A DNA stretch of 32,386 nt from Candidatus Woesearchaeota archaeon (GTDB lineage: Archaea; Nanobdellota; Nanobdellia; Woesearchaeales; GW2011-AR4), in NCBI GenBank assembly GCA_016192955.1, contig JACPTD010000016.1, positions 1 through 32,386 on the forward strand. The letters run 5' to 3'. Made by a program: the position numbers and the translations under genes. This document shows, in pieces, positions 18,301 to 25,183 of the stretch. How positions within the stretch are numbered: the stretch's first letter is position 1; the number at the start of each line of letters is the position of its first letter. The notes beneath the pieces are model-generated. The model ran no database searches. It saw nothing but the letters and a program-made list of their open reading frames with translations, and was not told the DNA's origin.

Positions 18301-20568
18301 CCGAACTGGTTAGTGCTTGCATTTACCGTCTGCCAGCCAGGTGTGCTAGCATTATAGAACTGCAGTACCGCATTAAATGGCTGTGTCAAGTTATCTGTAT
18401 AGTTTGCAAGCGCAAATAGCTTTCTTCCTTGTGCCCATGTGCCATCTCCGGCAGCAGGAACAGTTGCTGGGTCTTGTCTGCCTAAAGATGCGGTAGTATC
18501 ATACACAGAACTATTTGAAAAGTTTAAGGTTAGTAAGACAGGCGGTATCTGGTCAACTATGATTAATACAGAAGTCACATTCCTATTTGAGTTATTGCTT
18601 GCATCTACAGCTGTAACAGTTATATTCTTAGTTCCATTTGTCAATGCTGAAACTGTAACAGTGCAATTTACACCATCAGTTAAATTGCCCATGGCATTTT
18701 CACCAGTTATATTGAAGACGCTTGAGTTTGTTGCAAATCCAACAGGAAAACAAGTCAAATTTCTGCCTATGCCGCTTATAAAGAATACCCCAGCACTCAA
18801 TCCTGTATCGCCTGCAGGCACAACAGTAACATTAATGGTATTATTAATAGACATATTGATCCCTGTGCTGTTTAAGTCTGCTACTGTAAAATTAATCACA
18901 ATGGAAGTGCCTGTTGTATTAAAGATTGATACATCAGATGGAGGAGTTTGATGCCTTGTCCTGCCACCATCGTTGTTGATTAAGCTTCCATGCAATTGTA
19001 TTTCTGGAGCGCCTGTATCATTGCCAACTGTGCCTTGGGAGAAGTGACTTACAAAAGTGTATGTTTTTCCTGTTGTTAATGCAACACCATTTAATTGTGC
19101 TTTGTCACCCTCAAGCCAGCATGCACTTGCCCCCCCTACTGTTGAATTTGTAAAAATTGTATTCAACACAGCTGAATCATTATTAGCTCCAAATGCTGTT
19201 GCATTACATCGGTTAATTGCTGTGCAATTTGGGCTGCTGAAAAGGTCTGATCCTGAACAATACATATGCTTATCAAATCCAACGCCAGCAAGCTCTATGA
19301 CGCCAAATTTATATAGCACGAAGCTTGGGATGAATTTGGCAAATTCGCCTCCTGCCATTGTGGTTGCAAACCCGCTTCCTATAGCCTGAGTGACGCCTTT
19401 TTGAGCAGTTGTAGTGAGATTTGCATTGCTTAAATTTCCTAGTTGGTTTTCATCAACTCTCAAGCCAACAATGTATATCTTAGTTGTTGCGCTAGTGTTA
19501 AATATAAAAGTGTAGTTTCGAGCTAGCGGGTCAAAAAAGCTCGCTGCAGCAGGCGTGCCTGCGCCTCCTGTAGAATCTGCAGCTGAAGGGATTTCTGTTC
19601 CATTTCCAAATGTTATGTTTATTCCTACTGAGCCTGCTGAGCCAAAGCTTTGCAATGTCTCTTCGAATTGTGTTATATTGCCGCCTGTAACCAAAAAGTC
19701 ATAGGAACCTATGCATCTTGAATTGCCAGCGCTGTCATTTGCGCAGAATATAACGCTATGAGCTCCCGGACCTCTCCAAGTGCTCGAAAAATTTAGTGAA
19801 ACGTTGATTGTATACGTCTCCATTACGTTGATATTGGTGCTGGTAATGGACCTCAGCATTGATATATTTTTAACCGAGTTGCTTTGGCCAATGCTAAATT
19901 CCGCGTTGACACTGCTATTCTCCAATTGGCCGATTGTAGAAAATGTTGACGCTAAAAGTGATTGGCCATCCTGTGAAATTTCCAGTTGATCCTCCCCATA
20001 AACCATTACTTGTCAGAGTCGCATTTGGCGTTAGGGCAACCAATCTTGGCGGGGCTGTGTCAATATAAATTGAGCGATTCCCCGAGAATGTCAATCCACT
20101 AGCAACGCTTGCATTAGTAAAGTTATAACACGCAATTGCAAACGTATAATTTCCATCTGCGCTGAATGTATGATTCACATAACTTATTGTCTGATTGGAT
20201 ATATTAGCGTCTTCAGTTGGTGAATCTATAGTAATATTTTTTGCAATATCCCATTTTATGACATTGGTAGTGCTGTTTATCCACAGACTGCAATTCGACC
20301 TATTTTCATGTAAATCTGCTTGCCCTGCTGCATCACCAAAACTCCAAGTGGCATTATATGTAATGTTAACCTTTCTAGAAGCTGTGTTATTAAAAATTGT
20401 AAAATTTAATCCATGTGGGGTGCCAGGTGATATAATATTAAGAGTCATTGCCTCGACATAGACTACACTTAAAACAAAAATCAAAACTATAGAAGCTAAC
20501 AGCACTAAATTTACCTTGCCCTCTCGAGAATTAAAAAAACTACTGTAACCCTCTTTTTTCATCATCAC
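15368..20568 (-). pseudogene. Giant S-layer-like surface glycoprotein with PGF-pre-PGF domain and C-terminal TM anchor, split into three ORFs (20568-19915, 20006-16644, 16642-15368)
   Basis: A signal peptide occurs only in the first ORF (...VVYVEA). Ig-like D-x-x-P repeats and dense N-x-S/T sequons run throughout. ATTPGFSTFAIG, a PPEV linker, a TM helix and a KKK tail occur only in the last ORF. The gene may be intact in vivo if the breaks are assembly errors. Confidence 0.75.
16067..16102. repeat. Perfect 18-nt tandem duplication encoding DAAAAA twice
   Basis: TGCGGCGGCGGCTGCGTC at 16067-16084 and 16085-16102. Confidence 0.9.
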
Positions 20569-20627
20569 TCCTCTTATATATGTATAATATGTGGCAAATA
20601 ATTAAAGATTATTGGTTTGGCAGCATA

Positions 20628-20639
20628 TATTTAAATCTT
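20628..20639 (-). promoter_or_regulatory. BRE/TATA promoter of the S-layer-like gene
   Basis: Reverse complement reads AAGATTTAAATA about 60 nt upstream of the start; a GAGGAG RBS lies next to the start codons. Confidence 0.55.
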
Positions 20640-20817
20640 TTGATTTATAACATAACCTGCATGTAAAAATTCTAGCTAATAACGTAAAATTTGAAACACA
20701 AAACCCCCTTTGGATTTCAAAAAATCAGAGAATATTTAAACTTTGTTATATTGTATATCCTGCAATACATATATTTAACAAAATGTTTTTATAAACATAC
20801 TTCAACCGAATTTTAAG

Positions 20818-21162
20818 ATGTTGGTCAGGAACACAACAAAAGGCAGGGTTGTCCAGCGCGATGCCGAGCTAATTGAGGATATTCTATCAAAATTTATCGG
20901 CTTGATGTTCTCTGCAAAACAAAAAAAGGCTTTAATTTTCAAATTTGACAAGGAAAAGGTGATTGCACTGCATATGCTTTTTGTTTTTTACCCGATAGAT
21001 GTTTTATTTCTGGACAAAGGCAAGATTGTCGTGGATAAGAAAGAGAATTTCAAGCCATTTGCATTTTACAATTCCAGGAAAAAGGCGATGTACGCAGTTG
21101 AATTGCAGAATGAAGCTATAAAAAAGTCTAAAACAGGAGTAGGCGACAAAATTGAATTTTGA
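20818..21162 (+). CDS. DUF192 family protein
   Basis: GLMF...ALIF...LHMLFVFYPIDVLFLD...YAVEL...GDKIEF pattern. Confidence 0.9.
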   Translation: MLVRNTTKGRVVQRDAELIEDILSKFIGLMFSAKQKKALIFKFDKEKVIALHMLFVFYPIDVLFLDKGKIVVDKKENFKPFAFYNSRKKAMYAVELQNEAIKKSKTGVGDKIEF

Positions 21163-21171
21163 TTTATAGTC

Positions 21172-21260
21172 AGCCACAAAAATAATTGGGTATAGTTGTG
21201 GCTTCCTAATAGTCGACAACAAATCATAAATAACACCTAATTACTTTGTTAGTCGACTAT
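21172..21260. repeat. Composite palindromic element: module A (21172-21203) plus module B (21209-21260)
   Basis: AGCCACAA-N16-TTGTGGCT and ATAGTCGACAACAAA-N21-TTTGTTAGTCGACTAT; homologous to 25124-25215. Confidence 0.8.
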
Positions 21261-21588
21261 ATTTCATATTTTTGAATAAAATTGATATAAAGCATGCCAG
21301 CAAGTACACCAAAACCAAATTCAACGCAAAAGCCACCGGGTTGAACAAAAAGCCCCCAAACCTGCCAAAATATTCTCCAAGAAAAAATTTATTTGCGTTG
21401 CTAGAAGCCCCTTCGATGCCCCCTGTTATCATGTATTGAAAAGGAAATCCGTGGGCGTTGTAGCAAAATGCGAAGAAAAAGCTTACTGCGCAAACGCTTT
21501 CTTTTGCAAAATAGGAGTATACAATGCCTATAAACAAAAATATTAATATTTTAAGGCCAGATGGTTTTAAGAACTCTTTTACATTCAT
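21241..21588 (-). CDS. Small hypothetical membrane protein (two or more TM segments)
   Basis: 115 aa with hydrophobic N- and C-terminal helices and a central GFPF motif. Confidence 0.7.
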   Translation of the reverse strand: MNVKEFLKPSGLKILIFLFIGIVYSYFAKESVCAVSFFFAFCYNAHGFPFQYMITGGIEGASSNANKFFLGEYFGRFGGFLFNPVAFALNLVLVYLLACFISILFKNMKYSRLTK

Positions 21589-21644
21589 AAAAAATGAAGA
21601 ATATCTTTTCTATTTAAAATTTTGCAATAAGCAAATCAACAACC

Positions 21645-21652
21645 TTTAAATA
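21645..21652 (+). promoter_or_regulatory. TATA box of the tRNA-Trp gene
   Basis: TTTAAATA ends 25 nt before the mature tRNA 5' end. Confidence 0.65.
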
Positions 21653-21677
21653 ACTAAAACAAATTCTCTATGTTGGC

Positions 21678-21840
21678 GGGGACGTCGTATAAAGGAGCAA
21701 TCCGTACAACCTGGTTATTATCGCCGGCTCCAGTATTGGAGCGTTGAGCTTTTAGCGATGAAAGAAAATTGGCGATACCGGCTGATCTTTGCAAGAAATT
21801 GCTAAGAGTCGAAATCAGAGTTCAAATCTCTGCGTCCCCA
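21678..21840 (+). tRNA. trnW: tRNA-Trp(CCA) with three introns (21693-21709 at 15/16; 21734-21776 at 37/38; 21785-21813 at 45/46)
   Basis: Spliced sequence GGGGACG TC GTAT AACCTGGTTA TTAT C GCCGG CTCCAGA CCGGC TGAT CAGAG TTCAAAT CTCTG CGTCCCC A folds as a cloverleaf. Anticodon at 21730-21732; no encoded CCA tail. Confidence 0.92.
21734..21776 (+). ncRNA. Putative minimal intron-encoded box C/D guide RNA for Cm34 of tRNA-Trp
   Basis: TTGGAGC (21736-21742) is complementary to GCTCCAG. D-like box TTGA at 21744-21747 and C-like box GCGATGA at 21755-21761. The fifth nt upstream of the D box pairs with C34. Confidence 0.6.
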
Positions 21841-21867
21841 TTTTCTCCATACAAAAAATCAGCAAAT

Positions 21868-23928
21868 CTAATAATAAACTTCCTGTTCTTTGTTTGTTTC
21901 TTCGCTTAAATCCTTATTATTGCCTTGCAAGTATTTAATAACCCCGAAAGATAGGCCTATTAAAGCAAGTATAATGGCAAATCCTATCAAAATCGCTTTT
22001 AAAATGGCTTTGAGACTTGCGCCCAGCAATCCTCTTTTTGCCACAATGACATCCCCTTTTAAATGAATCTGCGCTAATGCCTTTTCATTGTCCTTGATTG
22101 TAACAACAAACGTCTGCTCGCCTATCGCGTTCCCTTTTGAGGAAGCATACAGGTATATTGTCTTTGACTCTTTTGGCTTTATGATAAAGGCGTTTGACTC
22201 CTTCAATCTCAAATCAGCCCAGTTTGCGCCATCCATAAGCAAGGTGTAAGTTTTTGCATCATTCCCCTCATTTGTTAAAATCAGAGGGTATATTACCTCG
22301 CTGCCGTCATTTTTCATGTTTTGTCTTAATAGGGGCGCATTTATCACAAGCCTGTCACTCACAAACTGCCTGGCTTGATCACTCTTGCCTAGAATAAAAA
22401 CAGGAAACTCCTTGACTTCGCTCTCGCTTCCAGACTGGGAAACTATCTCCAGCCTTAGGGTGTAAGTTCCTGTCGGCACATTATCAGAAATTTTCAGCGC
22501 AAAATCTTCTTTTGCTTCAGGAAGCTTGCTGTTTTTAATGTTGCCTAAAAACTTTGTTGATGAAACTTCCAGCTCCGGTATGCTGATCTTTGCGCTTATG
22601 CCGTCAAGGGGAACAACTCCAAGATTTTTAAAATTCAACGTCACAACAAGCGATTTGCCTGCTTCTGCATTGCCCTCAGGGCTTAGTAAAACGCTGCTTA
22701 TAATGAAAGGAAATTTCTTCTGGCTTATTTTCAGGCCGTAAAGCTTCTCTTCTGAATTTCCCTCTGCATCAATAACTTTTACCCTGAGCTTGAAGCTGTT
22801 TTGCTCAAATTGTCCTATCAAAGGCAGCTCAAGGTCTTTAACTGTGTTTTGTCCATCGAGCACGTCAAATGTTGTCGTGGCATCTGCAACAACATCCCCA
22901 TTTTCAAATGCAAGCACAGCGTCAACATGGGCATCCTCAACATCCTCAAGAGATGTAAGCCTTACTTTCAGGTTGAGCTTTTTTTCGCCTTGGTCTATTA
23001 CGACAAAATTATTCTCGCCTTCTGCCAGAATCTTATTTTCAACCTCTACATTGTCTATCGAAACGTCCAAAGCCCTGCCGCCTGCGCCGCCAGCTGTTCC
23101 ATCCCTTCCACGCATTTGCATGCCGTATGTCTGCTGAACAAAATCCCCTTCAGCATCAATAATTTTAACGGTTAATTCAAAAGAATTGCTTTGCCTCAGC
23201 CTGTCTATAAGCTCCAGCCTGAGCCCTCTTGCGAGGGTATTGCCGTCTTGCAGATTGAAATTTGGAGACGAGTCTGCAATAACATTGCCGCTCCTCAAGT
23301 CCCTAAGCACAGCTTCGACACGGGCATTTTCCAGGTCTTCCAGAGCAGTAAATTCAACCAAAACATCAAAATTATCGCTTTCATCAATGAAATTTGGACT
23401 CGATTGCGCAACAACCCTGCCATTTACCCTTACCCTGTCTATTGAGACGTCAAAGGTGCCCCTTCCAATCCTTCCGCCTGTGAACCTTAAGCCGTAATTT
23501 TGCGTCCTTGTATTGCCATCTGCGCCAACAACTCTTATATCAAGCCTAAAATCGCTCTGCCTTCTGAGCGAATCTATAAGACGAAGGCTTAACGCCACTA
23601 CGCTGCTTTGGTTTGTCCTCAGCAGGAAAGTGCCGCTTGAATCGGAAATTGTATTGCCGGTGCTTGAGTCTGTTAAAACAGCCTCGACATGCACATTTGA
23701 AATATCATTTAGAGCTGTGAGGCTTACAACGACATCCAAATCGTTTGTGTCTTGCAGAAAGTTTGTCCTGTCCCGTGCAAAAGTATTGCCATTTACCCTT
23801 ACCCTGTCTATTGAGACGTCAGATGCGGAAAATGAGTCAGATGAAGCAGCAAGGGCATAGGGCGCACTGCTAAATAAAATTCCAAAAGCCAGCAAAAATG
23901 CCGTCAAAGCAAAAATCTTTTTATTCAT
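21868..23928 (-). CDS. Membrane-anchored surface protein: three tandem ~120-aa repeats, a CARDB/COG1361-like region and a C-terminal TM helix
   Basis: Signal peptide ending ALA; DVSIDRVRVNG / DVSIDNVEVEN repeats; NLGVVP...GTYTLRLEI; C-terminal hydrophobic helix. An identical 35-nt repeat occurs at 23418-23452 and 23787-23821. Confidence 0.8.
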   Translation of the reverse strand: MNKKIFALTAFLLAFGILFSSAPYALAASSDSFSASDVSIDRVRVNGNTFARDRTNFLQDTNDLDVVVSLTALNDISNVHVEAVLTDSSTGNTISDSSGTFLLRTNQSSVVALSLRLIDSLRRQSDFRLDIRVVGADGNTRTQNYGLRFTGGRIGRGTFDVSIDRVRVNGRVVAQSSPNFIDESDNFDVLVEFTALEDLENARVEAVLRDLRSGNVIADSSPNFNLQDGNTLARGLRLELIDRLRQSNSFELTVKIIDAEGDFVQQTYGMQMRGRDGTAGGAGGRALDVSIDNVEVENKILAEGENNFVVIDQGEKKLNLKVRLTSLEDVEDAHVDAVLAFENGDVVADATTTFDVLDGQNTVKDLELPLIGQFEQNSFKLRVKVIDAEGNSEEKLYGLKISQKKFPFIISSVLLSPEGNAEAGKSLVVTLNFKNLGVVPLDGISAKISIPELEVSSTKFLGNIKNSKLPEAKEDFALKISDNVPTGTYTLRLEIVSQSGSESEVKEFPVFILGKSDQARQFVSDRLVINAPLLRQNMKNDGSEVIYPLILTNEGNDAKTYTLLMDGANWADLRLKESNAFIIKPKESKTIYLYASSKGNAIGEQTFVVTIKDNEKALAQIHLKGDVIVAKRGLLGASLKAILKAILIGFAIILALIGLSFGVIKYLQGNNKDLSEETNKEQEVYY

Positions 23929-24052
23929 TATGCTAAAGCGGGAATGTGTTGCCCTTTTTAAAGTTTTCGTTATTGGAGAGTAGGTACAAATTTAGTCATT
24001 TTAGAATGTGCCTTGCATTAGGTATATAAACAATAAATAAACACCAAAATCC

Positions 24053-25183
24053 ATGATAGCAATAGTCGGGGCTGGTCCTGCAGGCTCTTATCTTGCTTAT
24101 CTGCTTGCAAGGCAGGGCAAAGATGTGACAATATTGGAAGAGCATGACAGGATTGGGAGCCCTGTCCAATGCACAGGCATTGTCACCCATTCAATTGAGA
24201 AATTCTTCAAGTTAAAAAATGAGGTTATAGCAAAAAGGCTTGACAAAGTGGTTGTTGTGGGCAAAAGCAGCAAAATAAGCGTAAATGTTGATGAGATTGT
24301 CATGTGGCGCGACAAATTTGACATGTTTGTTGCTGAAATGGCCCAGGATGCAGGAGCCAAGATTCTGCTGAATCACCGATTCATTGGCTTTGATGGAAAG
24401 CAGTCAATAAAAGTAAAAGACAGGAAAAACAGCAAGCTGAAAGAAATAAAGGCAGATATAATTGTGGGGGCTGACGGCCCTTATTCTGCTGTTGCAAATG
24501 CTGCTGGAATGGGCTCAAATTCAAAAAATTATATTGGCATGCAGGCTAAAATAAGGCTAAAAATGGACACAACTGCATTTGAAACTTATTTTGGCATTGA
24601 TTTTCCAAACTTTTTCGGATGGGTTGTTCCTGAAAGCGAAGACACGGTAAGGCTTGGAATAGGCTGCTTTGAAAATACCAAGGAATATTTCTATAAATTC
24701 CTTAAAATGAGAACAGGCAAAAAAGACATTTTATGCTGGGAAAGCGGCTTAATTCCTTTATACAACCCAAAAAAAACAATACAGAAAGGCAATGTATATT
24801 TAATCGGCGACGCCGCAACCCATGTTAAAGCCACAACAGGAGGAGGCATAATACCATCGCTTAAGGCAGCGCACACATTATGCGACTGCATTGCCAGCAA
24901 CAAAAACTACAACAGGGAATTCAAAAGGCAGTCTGGAAAAGAACTCCTTTTGCATTTAAGGCTAAGAAATATCCTAAACAAGTTCTCTGACAATGACTAT
25001 GGCAAGCTACTGAGCCTGATGAGCCAGGAAAAGGTTAAAAAAATATTGAAAAAGTATGACAGGGACACGCCAATACCCTTGCTGGCTAATCTGCTGCTTA
25101 AAGAGCCAAGGTTTTTATTATTGCCAACCACAACAATACTTAAAAATTTTTGTGGTTGGAAAGGTAGCCGAACAACAAAGTAA
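24053..25183 (+). CDS. Geranylgeranyl reductase family FAD-dependent oxidoreductase
   Basis: GAGPAG, PVQCTG, RDKFD, VGADG, FGWVVP and GDAA...TGGGI motifs. Confidence 0.9.
   Translation: MIAIVGAGPAGSYLAYLLARQGKDVTILEEHDRIGSPVQCTGIVTHSIEKFFKLKNEVIAKRLDKVVVVGKSSKISVNVDEIVMWRDKFDMFVAEMAQDAGAKILLNHRFIGFDGKQSIKVKDRKNSKLKEIKADIIVGADGPYSAVANAAGMGSNSKNYIGMQAKIRLKMDTTAFETYFGIDFPNFFGWVVPESEDTVRLGIGCFENTKEYFYKFLKMRTGKKDILCWESGLIPLYNPKKTIQKGNVYLIGDAATHVKATTGGGIIPSLKAAHTLCDCIASNKNYNREFKRQSGKELLLHLRLRNILNKFSDNDYGKLLSLMSQEKVKKILKKYDRDTPIPLLANLLLKEPRFLLLPTTTILKNFCGWKGSRTTK

Follow-up and report, generated by a model that had tools for sequence, protein, structure and literature searches.

We analyzed a stretch of 32,386 nucleotides (nt) from a tiny groundwater archaeon of the Candidatus Woesearchaeota (NCBI GenBank assembly GCA_016192955.1, contig JACPTD010000016.1, positions 1 to 32,386), which we call the window. 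On its plus strand, positions 21678–21840 encode a tRNA-Trp(CCA) that is split into four pieces by three short introns of the bulge-helix-bulge (BHB) type: 17 nt at tRNA position 15/16, 43 nt at position 37/38, and 29 nt at position 45/46. A preliminary description, made from the letters of this DNA, had proposed this gene with these boundaries, and sequence comparisons confirm it: the in silico spliced product, the geometry of the introns, the orthologous genes, and covariation all agree. Taken as a whole, the locus is very probably a functional tRNA-Trp(CCA) gene, the sole one that we found in the assembly, whose three introns are spliced out and whose second intron has a dual role. Two features go beyond the preliminary description. 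Intron 2 appears to be a guide RNA built on a kink-turn (K-turn), and the introns are polymorphic among members of the genus.

Removing the three introns (coordinates in Table 1) leaves a product of 74 nt that ARAGORN identifies as tRNA-Trp(cca). The product has the CCA anticodon in a 7-nt loop on a stem of 5 base pairs (bp), an acceptor stem of 7 bp (GGGGACG at 21678–84 with CGTCCCC at 21833–39) followed by discriminator A21840, and an intact T arm (CAGAG-TTCAAAT-CTCTG) whose loop has the form TTCRAAT. It also has A15 and U48, as previously read, and A73 with G1-C72, which we take to be the archaeal identity elements for Trp. In the gene, the two halves of the anticodon arm (GCCGG-CTCCAG and A-CCGGC) are separated by 43 nt. 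The predicted minimum-energy fold of the unspliced precursor (-57.4 kcal/mol, z = -4.43) is matched by 0 of 200 shuffles, and its helices include those of introns 1 and 3 as well as the acceptor stem and T arm.

The interrupted form of the gene is present in the DNA itself. A search for sequencing runs that cover 19500–24500 listed four, all of them DNA metagenomes from one study and none of them RNA, and unitigs from all four runs bear the interrupted gene; one unitig covers 21634–21839 with 0 differences. Because these independent DNA unitigs contain the interrupted gene, the introns are genomic and are not an artefact of assembly.

As far as sequences can decide, the comparison with related genomes is the strongest and the decisive support for a three-intron gene. 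Using BLAST with 21640–21870 as the query against 60 relatives, we obtained 19 loci from the same genus (L002–L020), which we parsed together with the window, for 20 genes in total. Intron 1 is present in 15 of the 20, and the five genes without it (L008, L010, L011, L017, and L018) are all continuous across the predicted junction. Intron 3 is also present in 15 of the 20 (it is absent from L014, L015, L016, L019, and L020), and in L016 the window's exon letters are joined at precisely the predicted junction. Since the intron-less orthologues show these junctions, the boundaries of introns 1 and 3 are fixed independently of the BHB geometry. Intron 2 is present in all 20 genes.

After splicing by coordinates, all 20 products are tRNA-Trp(cca) according to ARAGORN (73–75 nt, 16 distinct mature sequences). 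The acceptor, anticodon, and T stems are paired in 20/20, and each has changed in a compensatory way: the acceptor stem in its pairs 5 and 6, the anticodon stem in pairs 1, 2, and 5, and the T stem in pairs 1, 2, and 4. Also, a motif of the form TTTA[AT]ATAA is found upstream of all 20 aligned genes, at about -33 to -24 in 18 of them and further upstream in L003 and L009.

The number of introns per tRNA-Trp gene varies within this set: six genes have two, eight have three, and six have four (L004, L005, L006, L007, L013, and L015). In L004–L007 and L013, the four BHB introns are at 15/16, 37/38, 45/46, and 59/60; in L015 they are at 15/16, 37/38, 53/54, and 59/60. Archaeal tRNA genes are described as having "up to three" or "a maximum of three" introns (PMC8450103, PMC4033280).

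We compared each intron to the standard BHB motif, in which two 3-nt bulges (B), each cut behind its second base, separate a central helix of 4 bp (H) from an inner helix (h') and from an outer helix (h). The helices, bulges, and hairpins of introns 1 and 3 are as previously described. In intron 1, H is GTAT/GTAC (4/4 paired), the bulges are AAA and AAC, h' has 3 bp, and the hairpin is GGA-GCAA-TCC. In intron 3, H is CGGC/GTCG (4/4 paired, including one G.U) and the bulges are TGA and AAA; its inner stem has 4 bp (TCTT/AAGA) and then, beyond a U.U mismatch, another 4 bp (GCAA-GAAA-TTGC). Neither intron has an outer helix. Such geometry is rarely met by chance: with a fixed span of 17 nt, 48 of 32,349 window positions have H 4/4 and at least 3 bp of h', as in intron 1, and with a fixed span of 29 nt, 17 of 32,337 positions have H 4/4 and at least 4 bp of h', as in intron 3. 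Among the orthologues, H is 4/4 in all 15 carriers of intron 1 (with h' of 3–7 bp) and in all 15 carriers of intron 3 (with h' of 2–9 bp). Thus, the three introns show what is expected of archaeal tRNA introns, namely bulge-helix geometry or a relaxed form of it, and a cloverleaf that is restored upon removal. By their predicted pairing, both intron 1 and intron 3 belong to the relaxed HBh' type, and intron 2 is a relaxed hBH-like form.

We found no sign that these introns transpose, as no further copies exist in the genome: a blastn-short search with the three introns gave only self matches, and the best other match had E ~0.09. As for introns in mRNAs, the window has 29 strong BHB hairpins on the plus strand and 17 on the minus strand, as compared to 16–19 in five shuffles of the plus strand, which is not a clear signal.

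Intron 2 has an architecture of its own. In order, it contains NUGA, one strand of a stem of 3–5 bp, a short loop, the other strand of the stem, RAU, and GA. This architecture was parsed automatically in 18 of the 20 orthologues. In the other two, L009 has the boxes without a stem and L012 has a hairpin insertion of about 120 nt. The intron is short (38–57 nt in 19/20). Its hairpin has the canonical stem, the 3-nt bulge, and the tandem G.A/A.G pairs of a K-turn, a fold that we predict from the sequence. Among the 18 clean parses, the K-turn stem exists in eight versions. In the alignment A1 described below, two of the three stem pairs change on both sides, and 97% of the cells are paired.

Directly upstream of NUGA, which resembles a D' box, lies a sequence that is complementary to the anticodon loop. 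In guides of the box C/D type, a D or D' box follows immediately and the fifth guide base faces the target, and this register is what we found: the fifth base upstream of the D'-like box (G21739 in the window) pairs with C34 in all 18 parsed orthologues. The same register is found in four of five tRNA-Trp genes that we parsed from other families. Across 22 distinct sequences, the guide helix is 96.3% paired. In an alignment of 23 sequences from five families (A1; 22 distinct), pairing within the guide structure stands at 97.5%, and none of 500 shuffles attains this value or its covariation score. Intron 2 is therefore probably a minimal, one-K-turn form of the box C/D intron of tRNA-Trp, which would place C34 at the methylation position.

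To examine the distribution of this intron, we used a covariance model of the anticodon arm with intron 2 (R1). It matched 127 of 151 genomes sampled across the order (E ≤ 1e-3; the count includes the unpublished genome G172). In a sample from across the phylum, it matched 70 of 121 genomes (E ≤ 1e-4), of which five belong to another order or orders of the same class. Four weaker matches in other families (L125–L128, from genomes G051, G074, G134, and G046) have the same intron architecture at 37/38 in tRNAs for other amino acids. According to ARAGORN, L127 and L128 are tRNA-Leu(CAA) and L125 is tRNA-Leu(CAG); the R1 alignment shows the loop CUCAAG, with anticodon CAA, in all three. L126 is a tRNA-Met(CAU) with the same one-K-turn type of intron. 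In these Leu and Met introns, the guide is altered to fit the respective loop, and C34 is again paired with the fifth upstream base. The tRNA-Trp intron of Pyrococcus is the guide sR50 for Cm34 and Um39, and tRNA-Leu(CAA) and tRNA-Met(CAU) of Pyrococcus receive C/D-guided methylation at the wobble position (PMC7994747). The 103-nt tRNA-Trp intron of Haloferax volcanii is also a guide for Cm34 and Um39 (PMC7714728). The isoacceptors in which we found the guide intron (Trp, Leu, and Met) thus match what the literature reports for C/D-guided wobble methylation.

Several observations weigh against counting intron 2 as a full member of the box C/D family. We did not find the full arrangement, in which box C (RUGAUGA) and box D (CUGA) form a terminal K-turn that accompanies an internal C'/D' pair; only one K-turn could be made out, with no sign of a box C/box D pair, and a search of 21400–22100 against Rfam at E ≤ 10 gave no related family. 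The guide duplex is just 5–8 bp. Intron 2 also lacks a guide for position 39, where this tRNA has C instead of U.

On another reading, which accepts the gene with its three introns, the K-turn hairpin does no more than bind L7Ae, or just folds, as a structural help to splicing; it would not guide methylation, and the pairing with the anticodon would be an ordinary anticodon-intron helix. Besides the missing box C/box D pair and the short duplex, this account gains from the lack of covariation in the guide helix (helix 2) within tRNA-Trp, which arises because the target columns are invariant, and from a gene of another family (L112) that has a plain 24-nt intron without a K-turn. We consider it unlikely. 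The spacing from the D'-like box to the base that pairs with C34 is invariant in 18/20 even though the guides differ, the architecture recurs with a matched guide in tRNA-Leu(CAA) and tRNA-Met(CAU), both of which are C/D-methylated in Pyrococcus, and genes for fibrillarin and Nop5 are present in the genome. So a guide for C34 remains our preferred reading of intron 2.

We considered a CUGA at 21782–21785 (C43-U44-G45 and the first base of intron 3) as a possible box D. We rejected it because it is 17 nt from the C'-like box, because there is no box C to go with it, and because 9 of the 20 orthologues (L004–L007, L012, L014, L015, L019, and L020) do not keep it.

In the locus of L012 (L012:1539–1844, genome G020), intron 2 is 186 nt long, as its K-turn hairpin contains the extra ~120 nt. 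In the study from which the window comes, unitigs of runs X3 and X4 fork at 21734, with one branch leading into a long intron that resembles this one. Because of this branching, strains with differing versions of intron 2 seem to co-occur.

The BHB motif that would release intron 2 is imperfect. Its outer helix is the 5-bp anticodon stem, but its central helix has 3 of 4 pairs (with a U33.C mismatch) and h' is a single pair; across the orthologues, H is 3/4 in 16 and 2/4 in four. Thermodynamic folds favour the guide hairpin over this BHB motif, so the precursor would have to switch between two mutually exclusive folds, as does the tRNA-Trp intron of H. volcanii. The two H pairs that adjoin the bulges, C32:G(-3) and C35:G(-6), are each kept in 20 of the 22 distinct sequences, and the inner two are kept in 7/22 and 15/22. 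A different motif or different cuts could give the same mature tRNA, for instance a bulge-helix-loop within the guide fold, or cuts that are shifted by 1–3 nt. Three pairs of cut sites for intron 1, and four for intron 3, yield an identical product, and in the predicted folds of intron 2, a hairpin loop contains the 5' site, and a 3-nt bulge that adjoins the anticodon stem contains the 3' site. However, just one of these cut pairs in each of introns 1 and 3, the one given here, combines H 4/4 with 3-nt bulges; only one cut pair in intron 2 yields the 7-nt loop CUCCAGA; and the pairs that adjoin both of its bulges are, as noted, conserved. We therefore think it very improbable that the cut sites or the motif of intron 2 are other than as given in Table 1.

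For the gene as a whole, there are also points on the other side. The D stem of the mature tRNA is weak (G.U, U-A, A-U, and U.U, with U13.U22 in 16 of the 20 orthologues). When we enumerated BHB-like removals permissively, ARAGORN accepted 97 of 7,146 variants as full-length tRNAs, and 11 of these as Trp, so the ARAGORN call alone is weak and does not discriminate between splice variants; the combination of BHB enumeration with ARAGORN is too permissive for ranking them. The frequencies of introns among the orthologues are biased and not independent, because these loci are kin and were chosen by a BLAST similarity that includes the introns. On the side of the enzymes, α-type splicing endonucleases (EndA) are described as strict for canonical BHB motifs (PMC5829648, PMC3488258), and we did not find the ligase RtcB in the organism's own assembly, which is 84% complete. 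The extreme form of this doubt, that the locus is a decayed tRNA-like relic whose insertions merely resemble BHB motifs, could appeal to the failure of tRNA finders (ARAGORN and the Rfam model) on the unspliced locus, to the weak D stem, and to the 37 permissive BHB-like pairs in the 180-nt gene region, but it is hardly credible given a gene that is conserved with its promoter motif in 20/20 genomes, compensatory changes in three stems, BHB geometry precisely at junctions that intron-less orthologues confirm, and no second tRNA-Trp gene found in the assembly.

Table 1. Parts of the tRNA-Trp(CCA) gene and flanking elements, in coordinates of the window.
Feature	Position	Strand	Remarks
TATA-box-like element TTTAAATAA	21645..21653	+	About 29 nt upstream of the gene; putative promoter
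Exon 1: 5' strand of acceptor stem, positions 8-9, 5' strand of D stem, A14, A15	21678..21692	+	
Intron 1, 17 nt	21693..21709	+	Position 15/16; predicted HBh' motif
Exon 2: D loop, 3' strand of D stem, position 26, 5' strand of anticodon stem, loop positions 32-37	21710..21733	+	
Anticodon CCA	21730-21732	+	Inside exon 2
Intron 2, 43 nt	21734..21776	+	Canonical position 37/38; relaxed BHB motif; bears the putative K-turn guide
Guide TGGAGC in intron 2	21737..21742	+	Complementary to G31-A36; G21739 pairs with C34 (21730)
K-turn hairpin: D'-like TTGA, stem GCT/AGC with TTT loop, 3-nt bulge GAT, GA (C'-like GATGA)	21744..21761	+	
Exon 3: A38, 3' strand of anticodon stem, positions 44-45	21777..21784	+	
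Intron 3, 29 nt	21785..21813	+	Position 45/46; predicted HBh' motif
Exon 4: positions 46 and 48, T arm, 3' strand of acceptor stem, discriminator A	21814..21840	+	CCA not encoded
T-rich stretch directly 3' of the gene	21841..21848	+	Likely terminator; orthologue tails are T-rich too

The locus is intergenic (21589–21867), between two open reading frames on the minus strand. Neighbouring open reading frames (DUF192, Ig-like repeats) are uninformative about the tRNA.

We found one EndA gene in the organism's own genome (G000:C89:105–704, minus strand). It encodes a protein of 199 amino acids with the N domain PF02778 and the catalytic domain PF01974. Its best relatives among solved structures are the α subunit from Nanoarchaeum equitans (E = 5.8e-36) and the α4 enzyme from Methanocaldococcus jannaschii (E = 4.4e-34), and its residues 49–199 align to residues 22–171 of the M. 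jannaschii enzyme (1A79) with a single gap of one residue. The N. equitans enzyme has a specific loop at residues 90–98 (PMC3488258); the EndA described here lacks the six extra residues that this α subunit has between the catalytic Tyr and His. We did not find a second EndA subunit or paralogue in the genome by using Pfam, the NCBIfam model of the β subunit, tblastn, or phmmer. EndA subunit typing thus gave a single catalytic α subunit with N and C domains and no β paralogue or fusion, which is the α4 type, with the tetramer as a prediction. Because it is a single α-type protein of 199 amino acids that matches the M. jannaschii α4 enzyme and lacks the loop, it is neither of the ε2 nor of the (αβ)2 type.

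The picture is similar across the genus. Of 41 genomes, 33 have at least one match to PF01974, and 32 have one over the cut-off. Only G027 has two strong α-like matches, and no match in these 41 genomes reached the cut-off of the β-subunit model. The close relatives of EndA are from Candidatus Woesearchaeota or Nanoarchaeota, in agreement with the preliminary description, which had recognized a DPANN-like genome from the DNA alone.

The preliminary description had also inferred that this genome needs a splicing endonuclease of broad specificity. The inference stands, since relaxed non-canonical introns are reported to be removed only by (αβ)2 and ε2 EndAs (PMC5829648, PMC3488258), but the sole EndA that we found is of the α type and has none of the insertions linked to broad specificity (CSL, ASL, or NEQ type). 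What it does have, within its first 48 or so residues, is an N terminus that is rich in Lys and Glu and some 27 residues longer than that of the M. jannaschii enzyme; more distant relatives match from about residue 25 onward. This extension is a candidate RNA-binding tail in an otherwise loop-less enzyme.

RtcB is present in 32 of 40 congeners. The genes for fibrillarin, Nop5, and L7Ae, the proteins that a C/D guide would need, are present in the organism's own genome (on contigs C42 and C44).

In some congeners, the RtcB gene is itself interrupted by short BHB insertions, which lie within the conserved CMPDGHWGYGFPIGG motif (L117 in G010:C19, L118 in G001:C4, and L115 in G011:C11). The insertion in G010 has 31 nt, H 4/4, and an inner helix of 11 bp. 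G001 has an insertion of 33 nt (H 4/4, 9 bp) and, further on, another of 12 nt (4/4, with an outer helix of 5 bp). In G011, 33 nt are inserted at a nearby site (H 3/4, 5 bp). Taking out the insertions restores the motif as found in the uninterrupted gene of G018. In about 17 of the 32 congeners with RtcB matches, the match either spans a longer stretch that includes in-frame stops or is split between frames. A literature search listed no report of BHB-interrupted RtcB genes.

The last part of intron 2 could have a role of its own. Its 3' tail together with A38 (GGCGAUA, 21771–21777) is complementary to U23–C29 (UAUCGCC, 21719–21725), and this tail-exon helix dominates the minimum-energy fold of the precursor. 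Its 6-bp core, at exon positions 24–29, covaries by eye: it is GGCGAU/AUCGCC or GGUGAU/AUCACC in 13 of the 20 orthologues. The helix also gives rise to a BHB-like pair at 21721/21779 (H 4/4, inner helix 5, outer helix 4), which we rejected as an intron; its removal would delete the anticodon.

From these parts, we propose how the gene may work. Transcription from the TATA-type promoter would give a precursor of 163 nt. The central helix of intron 1 would borrow the 5' strand of the D stem, and that of intron 3 would borrow the 3' strand of the anticodon stem. Intron 2 would adopt two folds. In the first (fold A), its 5' part would pair with the anticodon loop beside the K-turn hairpin; L7Ae would bind, Nop5 and fibrillarin would be recruited, and C34 would be placed for methylation. 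In the second (fold B), the 3' end of the intron would pair with positions 32–35 and form the relaxed BHB motif, which would then be cut. The tail GGCGAU would keep the anticodon stem's 5' strand occupied and leave the 3' strand free for the BHB motif of intron 3, and this may set the order of the three splicing events. EndA would excise all three introns, an RtcB-type ligase would join the exons into the 74-nt tRNA, and CCA would be added later.

More tentatively, these elements might form one system across the Woesearchaeales: a permissive BHB system that runs on a loop-less α EndA, with up to four introns per tRNA; BHB introns in the active-site motif of the RtcB mRNA; half C/D guides in tRNA-Trp, tRNA-Leu(CAA), and tRNA-Met(CAU) that methylate C34 in cis before the precursor refolds; and a tail of intron 2 that orders splicing. 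If the mRNA for RtcB is interrupted by BHB introns, then splicing would be needed to make the ligase itself. We consider this picture as a whole somewhat less likely than not.

It is useful to compare this gene to the known multiple-intron tRNA genes of archaea. Triple-intron tRNAs had been called rare and best known from the Thermoproteales, which agrees with PMC4033280 and PMC8450103. In those organisms (for example Pyrobaculum calidifontis), as here, several short BHB introns can occur in one tRNA gene, relaxed HBh' and hBH motifs lie at non-canonical positions, and introns seem to be gained and lost quickly. In contrast to the crenarchaeal Thermoproteales, the host described here belongs to the DPANN; it has one α-type EndA without loop insertions, instead of an (αβ)2 enzyme with the Crenarchaea-specific loop; six congeners have four introns in this gene, whereas the stated maximum is three; and there are no other copies of the introns in the genome.

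Intron 2 is best compared to the box C/D intron of tRNA-Trp in Euryarchaeota (H. volcanii and Pyrococcus), which is also at 37/38, also pairs with the anticodon loop, and also has C34 opposite the fifth base upstream of a D-type box (PMC7714728, PMC7994747). In contrast to the euryarchaeal intron, with its 103 nt in H. volcanii, the woesearchaeal intron is less than 60 nt long in nearly all orthologues, has one K-turn (a D'-like NUGA and a C'-like RAUGA closed by a hairpin), and has neither a box C/D pair nor a guide for position 39.

Among the DPANN, organisms with α4, (αβ)2, or ε2 EndAs share incomplete predicted sets of tRNAs and tRNAs with multiple introns (Kaneta et al. 2018, PMC5829648; Hirata et al. 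2012, PMC3488258). Kaneta et al. reported α4-type EndAs with an "L3" loop in DPANN lineages that are rich in disrupted tRNA genes, including one metagenome-assembled genome (MAG) of Woesearchaeota, and they noted that gaps in the tRNA sets are a sign of disrupted genes that escape detection (PMC5829648). In their work, broader specificity is tied to the L3 loop, while the EndA described here lacks the six N. equitans loop residues and has the length of the M. jannaschii α4 enzyme. The pre-tRNA-Glu(UUC) of Methanopyrus kandleri likewise has a D-loop intron of the HBh' type alongside one at 37/38 (PMC5829648), but it has two introns and is cut by an (αβ)2 enzyme, instead of three introns and an α-only enzyme.

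We searched the literature on Woesearchaeota tRNA introns, on DPANN splicing endonucleases and BHB motifs, and on archaeal tRNAs with four introns, and found no account of this gene or of a one-K-turn intron; the MAG of Kaneta et al. 2018 may have its tRNA-Trp listed in Figure 7 or the supplements of that paper. The gene adds a member to the established class of archaeal tRNA genes with multiple introns, in a lineage where such genes were expected and yet undocumented. The features that make it a variant are the minimal K-turn guide in the canonical intron and an endonuclease of "strict" architecture.

Several consequences follow if this is correct. Relaxed HBh' introns, at 15/16 and 45/46 and in congeners at 53/54 and 59/60, coexist with an α4 EndA that looks strict, and this bears on the accepted link between the architecture and loops of EndA and the types of introns. 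If intron 2 is a guide, then a single-K-turn intron of 40–50 nt would be the smallest natural guide of the C/D type, and the guide in the tRNA-Trp intron would extend from the Euryarchaeota to the DPANN. Also, the gain and loss of introns within one genus provides a natural series for studying intron turnover.

As the preliminary description had suspected, annotation tools miss this gene, which we showed for ARAGORN and for the Rfam tRNA model. ARAGORN found no tRNA in the unspliced window. No Rfam family reached its gathering score in the window, and a search of 21400–22100 at E ≤ 10 gave four matches, all of them unrelated and none tRNA-like. Standard gene finders overlook the gene because its sequence is divided into four pieces. 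In the whole genome (1.2 Mb in 130 contigs), ARAGORN found 12 tRNAs when introns were allowed, and the Rfam tRNA model found 10 over its cut-off, out of 17 matches at E ≤ 1. None of these tRNAs is a tRNA-Trp, and none is on the contig of the window, so within the 84%-complete assembly this is the only tRNA-Trp that we found, a point that the preliminary description had raised for checking. With an essential tRNA gene that is invisible to both tools, and with 10–12 tRNAs detectable in this genome, the "missing tRNAs" of DPANN are at least partly a problem of detection, and measures of genome quality that count tRNAs are misleading for such genomes.

Other interrupted tRNA genes may be present in this genome. 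A screen for the signature of the acceptor stem with the T arm gave 27 candidates. With the permissive enumerator, several of them fit best as tRNAs with an intron in the D arm and another at 37/38: Asn (C10:288–398), Gln (C33:12268–12377, minus strand, and C46:1946–2042), and Val (C67:1188–1309 and C79:524–632, both on the minus strand).

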